DNA of 64,000 nucleotides from Candidatus Latescibacterota bacterium (GTDB lineage Bacteria > Latescibacterota > UBA2968 > UBA8231), in assembly GCA_965261395.1 (NCBI GenBank), contig OZ253462.1:416001-480000 (forward strand), in the 5' to 3' direction. Below are positions 2,983 to 10,114 of the stretch, piece by piece. Position numbers and translations under genes: made by a program. A model generated the notes under the pieces. It worked only from the letters and a program-made list of their open reading frames with translations. It made no database searches and was not told the origin of the DNA. How positions within the stretch are numbered: the first letter of the stretch is position 1; each line of letters starts with the position of its first letter.

Positions 2983-5148
2983 GTGAGATTGCAAAAAAAA
3001 TGTAGGCGGGTGCTGGCGGCGTGGCTGCTACTGGCGGGGTCAGCACAGGCGGCGACCCTGAGCGGCTTTGTCACCGATGCTGACAACGGCGAAGCCCTGA
3101 GCCGCGCAGCTATCGCGGTGGAGGGGCTTCCGCTCGGGGCGGTCAGCAATCACAGCGGCTACTACGCGGTCAAACAAGTACCGGCTGGTACGCACGTGGT
3201 AAGCGCGTCGCATGCAGGCTACCAGACCCGGTGGGACACGCTGCGCTTTGGCGCGGACGAGGCCGTGCGGCTCAATTTGGCGCTAGTGTCCAAGCCGGCG
3301 GGCCTGGGCGAGCAGGTCTCGGTGGAAGCCGAACGCATCAGCCTCCGCGCCAAGCCGGTGCAGCAGTTGCCCGCCCTTGGCGAGGCCGATCTCTTGCGCA
3401 GCTTACAGCTACTGCCGGGCATCCAAGCGGTCTCGGATATCAGCAGCGGCTTGTACGTGCGCGGCGGCGGCCCCGATCAGGCGGCTATCCTCCTCGACGA
3501 CATTCCGCTGTACAATCCTTCCCACCTCTTCGGCCTCTTCTCGACCTTTAATCCAGACGCCATCAAGGAAGTCAATCTGTACAAGGGAGCCTATCCCGCT
3601 CCGTATGGCCGCACGCTCGGGGCAGTGCTCGACGTGAGCAACCGCGAGGGCAACCGACAGCGAACTAGCGGGCGTGGCGGCGTGAGTCTAATTTCAGGCC
3701 GCCTGCTCACCGAGGGACCAGTCGGCCAAGGCTCGTGGATGCTGGCCGGCCGCCGCACCTACCTAGAACCCGTGCTCAGCGCCATCCGCTCGCGCGGAGT
3801 GGATATCCCCTTGAACTATTACTTCTACGACTTCAACGGCAAAGTCAACCAGCGGTGGGGCGACGACACCTTTACAGTGAGCACGTACTGGGGCCAAGAC
3901 AACCTGCGGCTTGACCTAGAAGACGACGAAGAGTCTTTCGTCAATCTGCGCTGGGGCAACCGCGCCCTGACTGCGCGCTGGACGCGGGTGTTCTCGCCGG
4001 CCCTATTCGGGCACTTCATGGCCACCGGCTCGTCGTACGAAAGCATCATCGCGCTCCGTTTCCTCGACGCGCCCGTCCGCATCGCCAACAGCATCCGCGA
4101 CCTGTCGCTCAAAGGCGACTTGGATTACTTCGCCAACCGCAACCACACCCTTTCTTTAGGCTTGTTGGCCACCCTATTTGAGTTTCACTTTGCCCGATCT
4201 TTCAACGAGCGGACTCAGCTCGACTTGCGCCAAGAGCCGGTGCTGTTGGAAGGCTACGTGCAGGACGAGTGGCGGCTCGGGCCGACCACGCGAGTGCAGC
4301 TAGGCGGACGAGGGACGTACTTCAGCGCAGGGCACCGCTGGCATTTCGCACCCCGGCTGTCCCTGAGCCACGCCCTCAGCGACAAAGTCCGGGTCAAAGC
4401 CGGCGGCGGGGTATATCGCCAACACCTGCAACTGATCACCACCGAAGGCTTTAGCGGCGGCGATTTCTGGGTGCCGCTCGACAGCACCGTCGAGCCGGGG
4501 CGATCCTATCAGGCTGTCACCGGCGTCGAGTGGATCCCTTCGCCGCGCTACCAGCTTTCCGTGGAGGCTTATTACACGGACCTTGCCAACCTAGTGACCG
4601 TGGATACCGAAGTGGATGATGACAACGAGGCCACGCACTCGGACGCGGTATTCAAAAGCGGCGGCACGGGCTGGGCGAAGGGGTTGGAGGTCTTTTTGCA
4701 GCGGCGCACCGGCGCACTCACCGGGTGGATCGGCTACGCGCTCGGTTGGACGCGGCGGACGTTTCCCGAACTCAATGATGGCCGTCCCTTTCCCCCCAAA
4801 CACGACCGCCGCCACGACCTGTCTTTTGTCGCTTCCTACAAGGTGGGCGCATGGCGGCTCGGCGCGAGCTTGGCGTACGCCAGTGGTCAGGCGTTTACAC
4901 CGGTCTCCGAGACCCCTGCCCAGCGCAACAGCGCCCGCCTGCTGCCCTACCACCGCCTCGATGTCAGCGCTAGCCGATCGTTCGGATTGTGGGGAGCCGC
5001 CAGCGAGTTCTACGTGCAGATATTCAATGTGTACAGCCGCCGCAACGAGTGGTTTTTGCAGCTTGATTCAGTCGATCCCGAAGTCGACCCGCGCAAGATC
5101 AAACAATTGCCCATAATTCCCACGCTGGGCTTCAACTTCAATTTTTAG
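2983..5148 (+). CDS. TonB-dependent receptor (paralog 1) with N-terminal carboxypeptidase-regulatory-like domain
   Basis: Signal peptide, plug motifs LQLLPGI / YVRGG / YNPSHLFG / YKGAYPA, C-terminal Phe (GFNFNF). Confidence 0.9.
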   Translation: MRLQKKCRRVLAAWLLLAGSAQAATLSGFVTDADNGEALSRAAIAVEGLPLGAVSNHSGYYAVKQVPAGTHVVSASHAGYQTRWDTLRFGADEAVRLNLALVSKPAGLGEQVSVEAERISLRAKPVQQLPALGEADLLRSLQLLPGIQAVSDISSGLYVRGGGPDQAAILLDDIPLYNPSHLFGLFSTFNPDAIKEVNLYKGAYPAPYGRTLGAVLDVSNREGNRQRTSGRGGVSLISGRLLTEGPVGQGSWMLAGRRTYLEPVLSAIRSRGVDIPLNYYFYDFNGKVNQRWGDDTFTVSTYWGQDNLRLDLEDDEESFVNLRWGNRALTARWTRVFSPALFGHFMATGSSYESIIALRFLDAPVRIANSIRDLSLKGDLDYFANRNHTLSLGLLATLFEFHFARSFNERTQLDLRQEPVLLEGYVQDEWRLGPTTRVQLGGRGTYFSAGHRWHFAPRLSLSHALSDKVRVKAGGGVYRQHLQLITTEGFSGGDFWVPLDSTVEPGRSYQAVTGVEWIPSPRYQLSVEAYYTDLANLVTVDTEVDDDNEATHSDAVFKSGGTGWAKGLEVFLQRRTGALTGWIGYALGWTRRTFPELNDGRPFPPKHDRRHDLSFVASYKVGAWRLGASLAYASGQAFTPVSETPAQRNSARLLPYHRLDVSASRSFGLWGAASEFYVQIFNVYSRRNEWFLQLDSVDPEVDPRKIKQLPIIPTLGFNFNF

Positions 5149-5177
5149 CATCGAGATCGGCGTCTATTCGGGCCGTT

Positions 5178-5214
5178 TTGCAAGGGTACAACTCCCTCAA
5201 TATGTTTTTCTACA
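5178..5214 (+). promoter_or_regulatory. Putative ECF-sigma-type promoter of TonB receptor 2
   Basis: AAC(5190-5192)-N16-TCTA(5209-5212); conserved upstream of both paralogs. Confidence 0.4.
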
Positions 5215-5242
5215 TCCCGATTCCAAGCAGATTTGAGCAATT

Positions 5243-7510
5243 ATGACGAATATTCGCAAGACCGTGCAGCATGGGCGGAGCGGTTTACGAATGTTAGCGG
5301 CAGTGTGGCTGCTAGCGGCGGGCGCGGCACAGGCGGCGACCCTGAGCGGATTTGTGACCGACGCCGACAGCGGCGAATCCCTGCCTCTGGCCTCCATTGT
5401 CCTGACGCAGGTACAGTTGGGCGCGGCGAGCAATAGCAGCGGCTACTACGCCGTCAAAGAGGTACCAGCGGGGACGTACGAGGTGGTGATTTCGTATATA
5501 GGCTACAAAAGCTGGCGCGACACCCTAGCGTTCAGCGACCGAGATGTGCGCTTGGATGTGGCCTTGCAGGTCGAGTCGGTGGACCTAGAGGAAATTGTGA
5601 TCCAAGCCGAGCGCAGCGAAGAGCTGGAGCAGGCCACCCAGAGCAGTTTTATCGCCCTACAGGTCGAGCCGTTGCAGCAAATGCCAGCCATTGGTGAGGC
5701 CGATCTCCTCCGCAGCTTGCAACTGCTGCCGGGCATCCAGTCGGCTTCGGACATTAGCAGCGGCCTGTACGTGCGCGGCGGCGGTCCCGATCAGACGGCT
5801 ATCCTCCTCGACCACATCCCCTTGTACAATCCCTCGCACCTATTCGGCTTCTTCTCGACCTTTAATCCAGACGCCATCAAGGACGTCCAGCTATACAAAG
5901 GGGCCTACCCGGCTGCGTACGGCCGCACGCTCGGGGCGGTGCTCGACGTGAGCAACCGCGAGGGCAACCGACAGCGCTTCAGCAGCCGGGGAGGCATCAG
6001 CCTGATCGCAAGCCGTTTGCTGGCCGAAGGGCCGGTGGGGCAAGGCTCGTGGATGCTGGCCGGCCGCCGCACCTACCTAGAACCCGTGCTCAGCGCCATC
6101 CGCTCTCGCGGGGTGGACATCCCCTTGAACTATTACTTCTACGACTTCAACGGCAAAGTCAACCAGCGCTGGGGCGACGACACCTTTACGGTGAGCACGT
6201 ATTGGGGCCAGGACGATCTGCGGGTGGACATAGAAGATGAGAATGAGTCGTTCGTCGATCTGCGCTGGGGCAACCGCGCGCTGACTGCGCGCTGGACGCG
6301 GGTGTTCTCGCCGACCCTGTTCGGGCACTTCATGGCCGCTGGCTCGTCGTACGAAAGCACCCTCTTATTCAGCTTCTTCGACACGCCTTTTAGCATTGCC
6401 AACAGCATCCGCGATTGGTCGCTCAAGAGCGACTTGGATTACTTTGCCAACCGCAACCACACCCTCACCCTCGGCTTTCTCGCCACCCTGTTCGAGTTCG
6501 ACTATGACGAGTCCTTCAACCAGCAGGACCAGTCCGACTTGTACCAAAGGTCGGTGCTGGCCTCGGCCTACGTGCAGGACGAGTGGCAAGCCGGGCCGAC
6601 CACGCGGCTGCGACTCGGGGGACGGGGCACCTATTTCAGCGTTGCGGATCGCCTGCATTTCACGCCGCGAATGTCCCTGAGCCACGCCCTCAGCGACAAA
6701 ATTCGCGTCAAGGCCGCCGCGGGCATGTACCGCCAGTACTTGCAATTGATCACCACCGAAGCCTTTAGCGGCGGCGATTTCTGGGTGCCGCTGGACAGCA
6801 GCGTCGAGCCGGGGCGCTCTTATCAGGGGGTGATAGGCACCGAGTGGGACCCGTCGCGGCGCTACCAGCTCTCCGTGGAGGCCTACTACACCGACTTGGC
6901 CAATCTGGTGGTGCTAGACAACGCGGTGGCCGTCGATAGCGAAAGCACGCGCTCGGATGACATATTCAAAAGCGGGGGTAGCGGCTGGGCCAGCGGAGTC
7001 GAGGTCTTTTTGCAGCGGCGCACTGGCGCACTTACCGGGTGGGTGGGCTATACCCTGGGCTGGACGCGGCGCACCTTTCCCGAACTGAACGGCGGGCTCA
7101 CCTTTCCCCCCAAGTACGACCGCCGCCACGACCTATCTTTCGTGTTCTCGTACCAGGCGGGGAAATGGCGCTTAGGCTCCAATCTCGTGTACGCCACCGG
7201 ACAGGCCTTCACCCCGGCCTCGGCCCGCTATTCGCTGCGCGAGCCAACCACTGGATCGGTGGAAGACTACGTGCTACCGGCCGAGCGCAACAGCGCCCGC
7301 CTACTGCCCTACCACCGCCTTGATGCCAGCGCCAGCCGCGAGTTTGGGCTGTGGGGCCTCGACGTCGAGTTCTACTTGCAAATTTTCAATCTCTACAGCC
7401 GGCGCAACGAGTGGTTCGTGCAGTTCGACACGAAGAATCCCGAGACCGAGCCGGAAGTGGTCAAGCAATTGCCCATCGTGCCGACGCTGGGCTTCAACTT
7501 TTCGTTTTAA
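5243..7510 (+). CDS. TonB-dependent receptor (paralog 2)
   Basis: Same architecture (ISYIGY, YVRGG, C-terminal GFNFSF); exact start may be downstream (MLAAVW, 5291). Confidence 0.9.
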   Translation: MTNIRKTVQHGRSGLRMLAAVWLLAAGAAQAATLSGFVTDADSGESLPLASIVLTQVQLGAASNSSGYYAVKEVPAGTYEVVISYIGYKSWRDTLAFSDRDVRLDVALQVESVDLEEIVIQAERSEELEQATQSSFIALQVEPLQQMPAIGEADLLRSLQLLPGIQSASDISSGLYVRGGGPDQTAILLDHIPLYNPSHLFGFFSTFNPDAIKDVQLYKGAYPAAYGRTLGAVLDVSNREGNRQRFSSRGGISLIASRLLAEGPVGQGSWMLAGRRTYLEPVLSAIRSRGVDIPLNYYFYDFNGKVNQRWGDDTFTVSTYWGQDDLRVDIEDENESFVDLRWGNRALTARWTRVFSPTLFGHFMAAGSSYESTLLFSFFDTPFSIANSIRDWSLKSDLDYFANRNHTLTLGFLATLFEFDYDESFNQQDQSDLYQRSVLASAYVQDEWQAGPTTRLRLGGRGTYFSVADRLHFTPRMSLSHALSDKIRVKAAAGMYRQYLQLITTEAFSGGDFWVPLDSSVEPGRSYQGVIGTEWDPSRRYQLSVEAYYTDLANLVVLDNAVAVDSESTRSDDIFKSGGSGWASGVEVFLQRRTGALTGWVGYTLGWTRRTFPELNGGLTFPPKYDRRHDLSFVFSYQAGKWRLGSNLVYATGQAFTPASARYSLREPTTGSVEDYVLPAERNSARLLPYHRLDASASREFGLWGLDVEFYLQIFNLYSRRNEWFVQFDTKNPETEPEVVKQLPIVPTLGFNFSF

Positions 7511-7528
7511 GGAGGAAGTCGTGCGCTA
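7484..7528 (+). repeat. 45-bp direct repeat, left copy (receptor 3' end + RBS + GTGCGCTA)
   Basis: acgctgggcttcaacttttcgttttaaggaggaagtcgtgcgcta; 42/45 identical to 10070-10114. Confidence 0.9.
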
Positions 7529-7588
7529 TTAAGAGTTGGACGGTGAGGCACAGGGAAGGTATGAGACCCGGTTCTATATAGTTTCTAC

Positions 7589-8235
7589 TCACTTGCGTGC
7601 AATACGGCACGACTTCCAGTTCTTCGACCAATGTTCATCGGACTGGACATGGCCCGCCCGAACGCTCTTGCAGACATTGTACCTGAATTCCTCGACCGGA
7701 AATGCTCGTGCCAACCGTATCACCACCCCTTCCCGTTCACCTCCCAATACGGATGGCTCCGTGTGCGCCTTGCTTACGAAGTCCTGAATTTCGTCAACGG
7801 AGCGGAACAAGCCCTCGAACAGAATGGGGGCTACCGGAATGTCGTGTTCTTGGGCATAATCCACCATCGTCCGGAACGACGAAAAGGTACCATCCCCAAA
7901 GCGAAGCGCGAAGGCATAAAAGGTTTCGTTCTCGGCGACGGGTTCATATTCGATGCTGTGTACTCCGTAGATATCTTCACCATAAAGAAACACGTCCGGC
8001 TCCATCACTTTCCAAGCATGGTGTTTCTTGACCATCGCCATCCACTTGCCATTCGAAGGAGCGGAGACACTACGTGCATAAACTTCACCCTGGTGAAGGA
8101 GTGTATTGCCTCCATCGATCTTCTCGGTTACGACAATCGGTAATCCTATGAACCTCATCGGGTCGGCAAGAGCTTCGCCGTCTCGGACAGCCGCTGGCGA
8201 GTCTGGCCAGTAGGAGTTTTTGGATATTTGAGCAT
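7589..8235 (-). pseudogene. ATP-dependent RNA ligase family protein with a 1-nt frameshift near codon 8
   Basis: Motif I VVTEKIDGGN, LYGED, FYAF, REGVVIR, KSVR..HVQSDEHW. The family N-terminus MLKYPKTP (ATG 8235) is out of frame with YWPDSP: ATG CTC AAA TAT CCA AAA ACT CCT ACT GGC. Confidence 0.7.
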
Positions 8236-8331
8236 ATGACCTGACGTCGAAAATTGGCACTCGAGATCCGCGTGCGTGTTTCTTCCGTTCGCCGCTATGG
8301 CAACGTTGGTGTCTACGACAAAGGATGTCAT
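8155..8331 (-). pseudogene. Truncated PIN-like protein N-terminus, fused in frame to the RNA ligase start
   Basis: ATG overlaps the ATPase stop (TGATG); MTSFVVDTNVAIAANGRNTHADLECQ then FSTSGH-MLKYPKTP...*; 58 aa. Confidence 0.65.
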
Positions 8332-9689
8332 CACGAGGCTTTGATCCGTCTTTCCAGGGACGCTGTGCTAATCGCAGCAATCTCGCCCATTTCATCTCCA
8401 AAAAATTTATCCGGCCAGTTCTCTATTTCACCCCACATATTCAGACTGAGATCGTCGCATTCGGCTACGCCGTGTTTCGTATGAACGAAGTAGAGCTTCA
8501 AGTCTGACGATGACATTTCTTCTTCGGCTACGCGACGCTGGAAGCGCCTTAATAAGTGCTCACTGTGGCTTTCCACGACAATCTGGACCCGGCGCGTCTT
8601 GGCCACTGCGAGTATCACGTCCGCCAATCCACTTTGAACGGACGGATGCAAATGAATTTCCGGCTGCTCCATCAGAACGATAGAGCCATCCGGCACATAG
8701 TACAGAAGTACCAGAACAGGCAAGATTTGGGAGACGCCGAAGCCTACATCCGTTAGCATCGTCTCCGGGCCTTTGTCTCTTTGAACGCAGGCTTGGTACA
8801 GGTTGGACCTAGGCGCGATTTCTTTAACCTCGAAGGAATCAATCAGGCCTAGTTCTCTCAACCAATGGGCAATCATTTCTTGGAATGGCTTGTAGTGCTT
8901 GCGTGGTGCAAGGTTTCGCATCTCGCCTCGTGCGGTAGCCGCCAGAATGGCATCGATAGTGCGTTCGCCGCGTGGTCCCACATCATCGGGGCTAGATCCC
9001 GCCCACCTATACTCGCGCTGCGGATGCTCTCGGAGAGGGCCAAGATAGAAGATCCTATCCATCAGCGCCTCGTACTGAGCTTCGAATTCACTTAGAAAAT
9101 TGGCGTCTTGAAAGTAGGTACGGGCTTGGTCAGGGAAGAGATGTGTCTTAACCGGGCCGGGCAGAGCCCAACCCCGTCCTCTATTCCGAGTGAACTCGAA
9201 CGGGTGTTCACCGCATGATATAAGATCGAACTCATTGGGTTTGTCTACTTTTGGTTCGATGGCGAAAACGGTGTTGTCAAATTTATATTTCATATGATGC
9301 GCCGATAGATCTGAGCCTTTCAGTCCAACCCGGCATTCCATTTGTAGACTAGTTCCCTCTAAGAGCACCTTATTGCGAGGGCCCTTGGGGTCATAGACTT
9401 TATAAGAATTTGGAAGTGTCCAATCTAGGGTCCAGTTGATGTTCGCTTTCTGGTCGCCTTGATGCACAATGGCTTGGTAGGTTCCCAGATTTACCAGTTC
9501 GTTCGGTCCGCCGAAGTCCAGCACGGTACCCCGGTCTGTCGCATTCTTCGTCTGCTTGAGCAAAAGTAGAAACTGAAGCACACTGCTCTTGCCTGAACTA
9601 TTCGTGCCGAAAAGACCAGTGACCTTCCCTAAGGATATCTGTAACTCGCACCATGCCTTGAAGTTAGTGATATTAAGAAATTCCAACAT
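8331..9689 (-). CDS. ABC-type ATPase (AAA_15/AAA_21) with DUF3696-like C-terminus
   Basis: ITNFKAW, Walker A GTNSSGKSS, YLGPLR, DVGFGVSQILPV, MEQPEIHLHP, VESHSEH, WPDKFF. Confidence 0.88.
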   Translation of the reverse strand: MLEFLNITNFKAWCELQISLGKVTGLFGTNSSGKSSVLQFLLLLKQTKNATDRGTVLDFGGPNELVNLGTYQAIVHQGDQKANINWTLDWTLPNSYKVYDPKGPRNKVLLEGTSLQMECRVGLKGSDLSAHHMKYKFDNTVFAIEPKVDKPNEFDLISCGEHPFEFTRNRGRGWALPGPVKTHLFPDQARTYFQDANFLSEFEAQYEALMDRIFYLGPLREHPQREYRWAGSSPDDVGPRGERTIDAILAATARGEMRNLAPRKHYKPFQEMIAHWLRELGLIDSFEVKEIAPRSNLYQACVQRDKGPETMLTDVGFGVSQILPVLVLLYYVPDGSIVLMEQPEIHLHPSVQSGLADVILAVAKTRRVQIVVESHSEHLLRRFQRRVAEEEMSSSDLKLYFVHTKHGVAECDDLSLNMWGEIENWPDKFFGDEMGEIAAISTASLERRIKAS

Positions 9690-10069
9690 TGGTTACTTGC
9701 CTTCCTTGGAGTGCGGTCGCCACCTCGACGCTTCTCGTGAGGTCTCGTTCCGAAACCGCGCCGACCGACCATCTCCTTCCGGTGAAATAGCTGGATTCGC
9801 TTGGAGGCAGCCTTAATGGTCTCTTTCATGGCTCCACCATAGTTTTGGTCGCGTGGTGTAAGACAAAGTACAAGGTTCAGCAAACCCTCGCCAGCATCAC
9901 GTCCTCTTGTAGTAGCCTCTCGATACGGACCTGGAGCAGCGATCGTATATATTTGTATATAGTGTTCGATATACTGTACTTTTGCTTTATGCCAAGCAAG
10001 ACTTTGGCCTATCTAGGCAGCCGTTTTCGACTTGGGCCAAACAGTATGAATCCCAAGGTGCGCCTAAAC

Positions 10070-10114
10070 ACGCTGGGTTTCAATTTTTCGTTTTAAGGAG
10101 AAAGTCGTGCGCTA
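10070..10114 (+). repeat. 45-bp direct repeat, right copy
   Basis: acgctgggtttcaatttttcgttttaaggagaaagtcgtgcgcta; encodes an orphan TLGFNFSF* and supplies the RBS/start of the lipoprotein. Confidence 0.9.

Follow-up and report, generated by a model that had tools for sequence, protein, structure and literature searches.

The described system closest to the locus treated here is HEC-03 (Hma-embedded candidate 03), which in the main text of the HEC preprint consists of two genes, one for an ABC ATPase and one for a VapC-like PIN protein. According to that text it lowered plaquing in Escherichia coli, required both genes and was toxic when induced, and its ATPase was proposed to be an infection sensor that unleashes the PIN (10.1101/2024.01.29.577857). 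The words 'RNA ligase' do not occur anywhere in that main text. A second relevant system is the conflict system proposed by Burroughs and Aravind (2016), which a sentence in PMC5499597 describes as made of a PIN, an ATP-grasp RNA ligase, an ATPase and an HNH protein, with the ligase neutralising the nucleases. Here we analyse a stretch of 64,000 nucleotides (nt) from a Candidatus Latescibacterota bacterium (contig OZ253462.1, positions 416,001 to 480,000; the whole stretch is called the window below), in which an ABC ATPase gene, the beginning of a PIN gene and an RNA ligase gene follow one another on the minus strand at 7589–9689. We put at about 0.6 the probability that this locus is a disarmed member of a three-gene family consisting of HEC-03 and a ligase, and we are highly confident of its anatomy and decay as laid out below.

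Like HEC-03, the window has an ATPase that matches the HEC-03 profile over its full length and a PIN gene right behind it, present as a stub in the window and complete in L006, the corresponding locus of another genome of the same genus. It differs in that HEC-03 was described with two genes, whereas the ligase is a third gene both in the window and in 57 of 80 relatives, and in that the window lacks a complete PIN, just positions 2–29 of the 159-position PIN profile being matched. It should be noted that the component letters are swapped between sources: in PADLOC-DB the ATPase goes by HEC-03B and the PIN by HEC-03A, while in the preprint the ATPase is HEC-03A and the PIN HEC-03B. With the Burroughs–Aravind system, compared here through the PMC5499597 sentence, the locus shares a PIN, an Rnl-type ligase and an ATPase in one operon, the ligase there being a proposed neutraliser; the difference is that crude clustering of open reading frames (ORFs) gave no HNH gene in the 80 loci. 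As far as the published account cited here goes, that system is listed under PIN_3/COG1569, and the cassette PINs match such families weakly: among 65 full-length PINs, 27 matched PF13470 (best E-value 1.7e-4) and 37 matched PF01850 (best 4.3e-4), and the L006 PIN reached 21 bits in the Pfam scan, below the gathering score of 23.6. PARIS and Menshen have homologous ABC ATPases (AriA, 2.9e-28, partial; NsnB, 1.4e-60) and the same logic of a sensor ATPase with a nuclease, but these scores are far weaker than those for HEC-03, and neither the Toprim AriB nor the NsnA and NsnC partners found a match among the ORFs scanned.

PrrC is an ABC-ATPase-linked HEPN anticodon nuclease that cuts tRNA on infection and leaves cyclic-phosphate ends; phage T4 reverses the cut with Pnkp and Rnl1, and the kinase-phosphatase is needed. 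The likeness lies in an RNase linked to an ABC ATPase and in a cut that an ATP-dependent RNA ligase can reverse. There, however, the ligase is phage-borne, whereas here a host cassette carries both cutter and sealer and no end-healing enzyme. Stand-alone PF09414 ligases of jumbo phages and megaplasmids have the same domain, the same size and the motif KYPxTP(Y/H)WP at 30–50% identity, but no ATPase or PIN adjoins them.

An original prediction, made from the sequence of the window, held that no described system has this make-up. This was too strong, given HEC-03 for the ATPase and PIN and the Burroughs–Aravind proposal as related in PMC5499597. The ATPase–PIN pair is already known and validated; the three-gene form with a ligase is not in the main text of the HEC preprint. 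The idea of an ATPase, a PIN and a ligase acting together appears to be in print already, since an ATPase–PIN–ligase defence system was found described in one sentence of PMC5499597, and nowhere else in the literature searched.

The features of the locus, in window coordinates, are as follows.
8331..9689, minus strand: ABC-type ATPase (AAA_15 + DUF3696), intact, 452 amino acids (aa), from Pfam and PADLOC profiles
8248..8334, minus strand: PIN stub, the first 29 codons of a HEC-03 PIN, from the PDLC04147 match and tblastn
8241..8251, minus strand: deletion-junction filler of 11 nt, from pairwise alignment to L006 and from contigs
7589..8235, minus strand: Rnl2-like ATP-dependent RNA ligase, from PF09414, with the recorded frame broken after codon 8
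7484..7528, plus strand: left 45-nt direct repeat, from the repeat search; the inserted cassette starts at 7529
10070..10114, plus strand: right 45-nt direct repeat, carrying the working start GTG (10107) of a 306-aa downstream gene

The ATPase has Pfam matches to AAA_15 (1.9e-25), AAA_21 (1.2e-20) and, at its C-terminus, DUF3696 (9.4e-07; 29.4 bits, above the cut-off of 22). It matches the PADLOC profile of HEC-03, PDLC04148, from end to end (3e-214, 710 bits; residues 1–451 against positions 1–455 of 458). Its TGA stop is overlapped by the GTG/ATG start (GTGATGA) of a 59-aa ORF on the minus strand (8155–8334) that begins MMTSFVVDTNVAIAANG, and residues 4–31 of this ORF correspond to the profile positions 2–29 mentioned above (PDLC04147, 4.7e-10). 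The predicted start/stop coupling of a DUF3696-type ATPase to a PIN-like start is therefore confirmed, and the PADLOC check that had been suggested identifies the ATPase as HEC-03 over its full length and the stub as the start of the HEC-03 PIN profile. The stub was also right to be seen running in frame into the ligase N-terminus MLKYPKTP, but this motif begins at residue 34, after 33 codons (about 29 of them PIN-derived) and not after about 26. What lies downstream is indeed a PF09414 ligase, but its recorded body (1e-17) is part of the ORF 7589–8401, in a frame other than that of the 59-aa ORF, one nucleotide being missing at 8212/8213. The stub retains D8, the first acidic active-site residue, as its sole one, and the other conserved acidic positions are gone. 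No other copy of the cassette PIN or ligase was found in the window genome, a single 6.55-Mb contig.

L006, the closest relative, provides the intact counterpart. It occupies the site of the window cassette, with the TonB-dependent receptor gene on one side and the downstream gene on the other as in the window, and all three cassette genes are intact: the ATPase (5001–6359), a 163-aa PIN (6356–6847; 1.3e-66 against the PADLOC PIN profile) and a 215-aa ligase (6875–7522), which begins MLKYPKTPYWPDSPA and is separated from the PIN stop by 28 nt. The window is 89% identical to it in the ATPase, 90% in residues 1–29 of the PIN stub (tblastn) and 87% in the ligase. In a pairwise alignment 431 nt of L006 (6439–6869) are replaced by 11 nt in the window (8241–8251), so that PIN codons 30–163, the stop codon and the spacer are lost, a net change of –420 nt that keeps the frame. 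A three-gene ATPase–PIN–ligase system disarmed by deletion had been one of two options in the original prediction, and the intact triad at the same site, together with the wide recurrence of the triad, supports it.

The ligase frameshift is a different matter. Compared with L006 and L011 (alignment A1), one C of a CCC run is absent from the window at 8212/8213, that is, at ligase codon 8/9. Both the frameshift and the deletion junction were checked by aligning short-read contigs, assembled from four public runs of as many studies, to the window. RNA runs X16–X20 contained just 5–9% of the sampled words. An extra plus-strand G after 8212 is present in all 11 covering contigs (2, 3, 4 and 2 in the four runs) at full depth. 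As every covering contig in four runs carries the missing base, the frameshift is a probable error of the record, most likely one of consensus or assembly; other homopolymer errors may exist in the record of this genome. Positions 8157–8294 are covered by two contigs of 139 nt each (X1 record 3, X8 record 28) with 0 mismatches and only the 1-nt gap, so that one molecule carries both the deletion junction and the restored ligase frame. Because contigs from X1 agree with the window without a mismatch over the greater part of the stretch, this run may be the source sample and does not count as independent; X8 comes from another study. Contig matches also break at 8240 and 8252, and in all four runs the loose ends continue into PIN-like sequence, which indicates that the same samples also contain relatives whose PIN is intact. 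The PIN deletion is genuine in the window genome, and once the missing base is put back, the stub reads on, in frame, into a whole ligase of 215 aa.

The locus is best read as a 2.6-kb cassette that arrived by horizontal transfer and belongs to the three-gene form of the HEC-03 family. The insert is flanked by 45-nt direct repeats (93% identity, spacing 2586; repeat family D1), each made of the last codons of the receptor gene, its stop, a ribosome-binding site and the GTG of the next gene. GC content is about 50% within the cassette versus about 62% outside. Twelve of the 18 other genomes of the genus (G002–G006, G008–G013, G018) have an empty site, with abutting flanks and a single copy of the repeat; G001, the genome of L006, carries the cassette, in G007 the site holds about 0.5 kb of different sequence, and the remaining four gave partial matches there or none. 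Synonymous divergence (dS) between the window and L006 is 0.24–0.28 in the cassette genes versus 0.37–0.39 in the flanking genes. No integrase is found among the ORFs within the insert.

Direct repeats of 27–297 nt also flank HEC-03 cassettes in six other loci, namely L006 (4674/7938), L043, L058, L062, L063 and L070; those of L063 and L070 measure 297 and 77 nt, and the gene beside them presumably encodes an RNA polymerase beta-prime-like protein. The window cassette directly follows the second (5243–7510, 755 aa) of two tandem paralogous TonB-dependent-receptor-like genes, the first being 2983–5148 (721 aa), with near-identical stretches between them. L006 has an extra 90-aa HicB-like ORF between ligase and receptor (7657–7929, minus strand; UPF0150, PF21748, 2e-26), and the window is about 340 nt shorter at this place. 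An 84-aa ORF upstream of the ATPase (9629–9883, minus strand) has no family match and was treated as spurious, none of the four ORFs scanned was assigned to a specific family by NCBIfam, and a promoter and terminator scan found nothing exceeding shuffles.

How general the three-gene arrangement is was addressed with an ATPase scan of species-representative genomes, which gave 275 confirmed relatives (tblastn). The best 80 (L001–L080) were kept, and PIN and ligase were located in them by tblastn with the L006 proteins. A PIN start lies right behind the ATPase in nearly all of these loci, and in 57 of them, from 8 phyla (taxonomy taken from record titles), the next gene after the PIN is a ligase. 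The original prediction had allowed that the homologues might never co-occur elsewhere; they do so in more than two-thirds of the loci. From these 57 loci we define the three-gene variant as ATPase, PIN and PF09414 ligase on one strand, the ligase starting about 25–60 nt past the PIN stop. The window keeps the order and the position of the ligase with the PIN reduced to a stub, and is thus a deletion derivative with L006 as its intact counterpart. By our filters, full-length ORFs number 65 for the PIN and 49 for the ligase (205–240 aa) among the 80 loci. L038 and L053 have full-length ligase matches inside longer ORFs, the end of its contig truncates L076, and L009, L035, L041, L042 and L061 are decayed. 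No ligase match was found in 23 loci: L012 ends at a contig end, and the remaining 22 are followed by unrelated genes, of which several resemble other defence genes. When crude ORFs from the 80 loci were clustered all against all, no recurrent fourth gene family emerged; since no further family recurs beside the three genes, the cassette has no end-healing enzyme.

An ATPase tree built by a quick method has 79 rows, L028 and L042 having been dropped as their ATPase translations break after 65 and 79 residues. The ligase-bearing loci fall in two of its clades, of 20 and 39 rows, both with support of 99, and the ligase label changes 4 times versus a shuffled mean of 19.6 (0 of 500 shuffles as low). 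Of 168 genomes in the phylum of the window, 10 carry the ligase, at 11 places in all. An ATPase and a PIN adjoin it at 8 of these places; the others are a solitary copy (L102), a distant fragment without ATPase (L110) and one cut by a contig end (L109). Between very different phyla, most of the loci being from metagenome-assembled genomes of uncultured organisms, the cassette genes share 60–77% identity, a sign that all three are often transferred laterally as one unit. Among individual loci, L010 has a second, partial ligase copy (9188–9583) about 1.8 kb downstream of the first, and L074 has about 1.3 kb (6356–7650) inserted between ATPase and PIN.

The ligase itself matches PF09414 with 65.2 bits against a cut-off of 27 (1e-17). 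Its motifs EKIDGGN, GEDIYG, EREGVVIR and CKSVR fall in columns that are invariant in the alignment of 49 ligases (A2), the invariant residues being K39 (EKxDG), E87, E169–G170 and K190. We take the lysine of KxDG to be motif I, and the further motifs to be III, IV and V, of a nucleotidyltransferase. An N-terminal motif, KYPxTPYWPxSP, is also conserved in the 49 sequences, and the protein is a bare adenylyltransferase domain. The best Foldseek matches of its AlphaFold model are the Pab1020, Palaeococcus and Naegleria ligases, followed by T4 Rnl2, REL1 and Trl1; the entries include 2vug, 6vt4, 5cou and 8ucg, and those listed are RNA ligases save 3qwu, which is titled putative DNA ligase. The predicted fold is thus that of the adenylyltransferase of an ATP-dependent RNA ligase. 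Sequence searches of the PDB with the ligase and with the PIN profile gave nothing useful. A complex prediction for PIN (alignment A3) and ligase (A2) scored 0.01, which we count as evidence neither way.

Outside the cassettes, homologues with 42–50% identity occur in nine viral contigs (L093–L101; IMG/VR, 27–455 kb), mostly of jumbo-phage size, with no ATPase or PIN near the ligase in any of the nine. They place the ligase family on both sides of the phage–host conflict. These viral ligases have the same N-terminal motif, as KYPxTPHWP. At 30–41% identity follow named jumbo phages and megaplasmids, and in a large protein collection the family amounts to 1189 clusters at E ≤ 0.001, most of them unnamed or called 'RNA ligase family protein'. 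No HEC-03 context was found around distant relatives in Pseudomonas plasmid and Deinococcus plasmid neighbourhoods. In the Deinococcus plasmid (L113, 3992–5886) a distant relative of the ligase (33%) overlaps the start of an 'AAA family ATPase' gene, with no PIN, which makes it a ligase–ATPase pairing of another kind.

We propose that in the intact cassette the ATPase would sense infection and release the PIN RNase onto tRNA or other RNA, and that the ligase would directly rejoin the RNA so cut. Metal-dependent nucleases produce 3'-OH and 5'-phosphate ends, the kind that can be joined directly by an ATP-dependent ligase. PIN cuts would be expected to give such ends, in which case a kinase and a phosphatase would be unneeded. 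PIN domains are described as metal-dependent nucleases in a passage of PMC5499597, and metal-independent RNases, according to a passage of PMC7824862, leave ends that require a kinase and a phosphatase before ligation. As the PIN is metal-dependent and no end-healing genes accompany the cassette, resealing would be the simplest role for the ligase. The acidic residues of the PIN are conserved across the aligned PINs. Resealing may limit the self-damage done by leaky PIN activity and permit recovery. We advance this role with somewhat less than even odds. For the window the same scheme would leave an orphan ATPase and a ligase, the latter perhaps translated from its own ATG or fused to a 33-residue leader. 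Since HEC-03 needs both ATPase and PIN and the genome has no other PIN copy, the cassette is, judging from its gene content, most likely dead as an immune system.

Several observations weigh against this picture. The ligase is absent in 23 of the 80 loci, including whole clades, the HEC-03 that was tested has two genes, and in L009 and L061 the ligase is broken and yet the ATPase and a full PIN persist; the ligase is thus dispensable for HEC-03 immunity and for tolerating the PIN. The 3'-OH and 5'-phosphate ends presumed for PIN cuts are those of metal-dependent nucleases in general. The AlphaFold model of the ligase is moderate (predicted local distance difference test score, pLDDT, 73.7; predicted template-modelling score, pTM, 0.77), and its 21 Foldseek matches at E ≤ 0.001 have TM scores of just 0.41–0.49. 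The best structural matches include Rnl3 enzymes, which circularise RNA, so that a role of the ligase other than repair is possible. The read support for the junction and the frame consists of assembled contigs, from which rare variants are dropped. Finally, the ATPase and ligase are under purifying selection in the comparison with L006, with low ratios of non-synonymous to synonymous substitution (dN/dS), which could mean continued use after the loss of the PIN.

Some of these points would suit a ligase that belongs to the attack of the intact cassette, circularising or mis-joining PIN-cut RNA or adenylating its ends and so blocking phage or host repair. Rnl3-type ligases are among the best fold matches (2vug, 8ucg), and the ligase is dispensable for PIN tolerance, as the two-gene clades, L009 and L061 indicate. 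However, the ligases of the jumbo-size viral contigs (9 loci, 42–50%) fit the repair role described for phage Rnl, and the proposal in print, in the sentence of PMC5499597, is one of nuclease neutralisation. We regard an attacking ligase as unlikely.

Preferring a disarmed cassette, we also have to ask whether the window could have gained a new function by its deletion. Four other loci have independent PIN-removing deletions with differing end points, which start within the first 33–68 PIN codons. L035 retains PIN 2–41 and ligase 171–213; L041 retains PIN 4–68 and ligase 10–212; in L042 PIN 4–50 and ligase 94–212 remain and the ATPase is broken too; in L103 PIN 2–33 and 103–158 remain and the ATPase is split in two pieces. 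A premature stop interrupts the PIN of L026. Among the 80 loci and 10 loci of the phylum, the window is the sole PIN-deleted case in which ATPase and ligase are both whole. The recurrent loss of the PIN fits the loss of a toxic effector.

The other option of the original prediction was that the effector had been swapped for a ligase. In this form it is not supported, as the ligase is the regular third gene and no other locus has a clean ATPase–ligase pair. A modified form would be that, once the PIN was lost, the ATPase and the in-frame stub–ligase fusion were selected as a two-gene module, an ATPase-controlled RNA ligase or repair unit, perhaps a sensor-gated one that guards against other RNases. 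The ATPase is intact, the contigs restore the ligase frame, the deletion is in frame and leaves the start/stop coupling to the ATPase as it was, and dN/dS between the window and L006 is 0.18 for the ATPase and 0.25 for the ligase. Against this, it is a single case among the loci just mentioned; each of the other loci with a PIN deletion has a damaged ligase (L035, L041, L042) or ATPase (L042, L103) as well; the chance that a deletion is in frame is one in three; and dN/dS is an average over the entire period since the divergence from L006, the greater part of which may lie before the deletion. In our reading the state of the window is recent decay and not a new module, to which we give low odds. 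If it were true, a single deletion would have converted a defence system into a repair system.

Within the three-gene family, the ligase might still be a passenger that travels with HEC-03 and is functionally untied to it. A solitary ligase copy exists (L102), and relatives with 30–34% identity occur in unrelated plasmid and phage contexts. The fixed order and spacing in 57 of 80 loci and 8 phyla, the adjoining ATPase and PIN at 8 of 11 ligase places in the phylum and the invariant catalytic motifs make this very improbable. That a chance deletion joined two unrelated cassettes we reject: L006 has the intact triad at the same chromosomal site, with the ligase 28 nt past the PIN stop, 57 of 80 loci have their ligase in this position, and no point in favour was found.

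The ligase 'frameshift' is a caution in itself, being a probable assembly error. The window copy is a remnant, and its practical value lies in the clean set of intact and naturally disarmed alleles to which it belongs. It appears that the toxic PIN is a recurrent casualty of decay, in the window and in four other loci. For the family as a whole, the finding means that HEC-03, a validated anti-phage system, is also widespread as a set of three genes with an RNA ligase of its own, and that a host cutter and a sealer placed under one sensor would offer a test case for reversible, non-suicidal RNA-targeting immunity.

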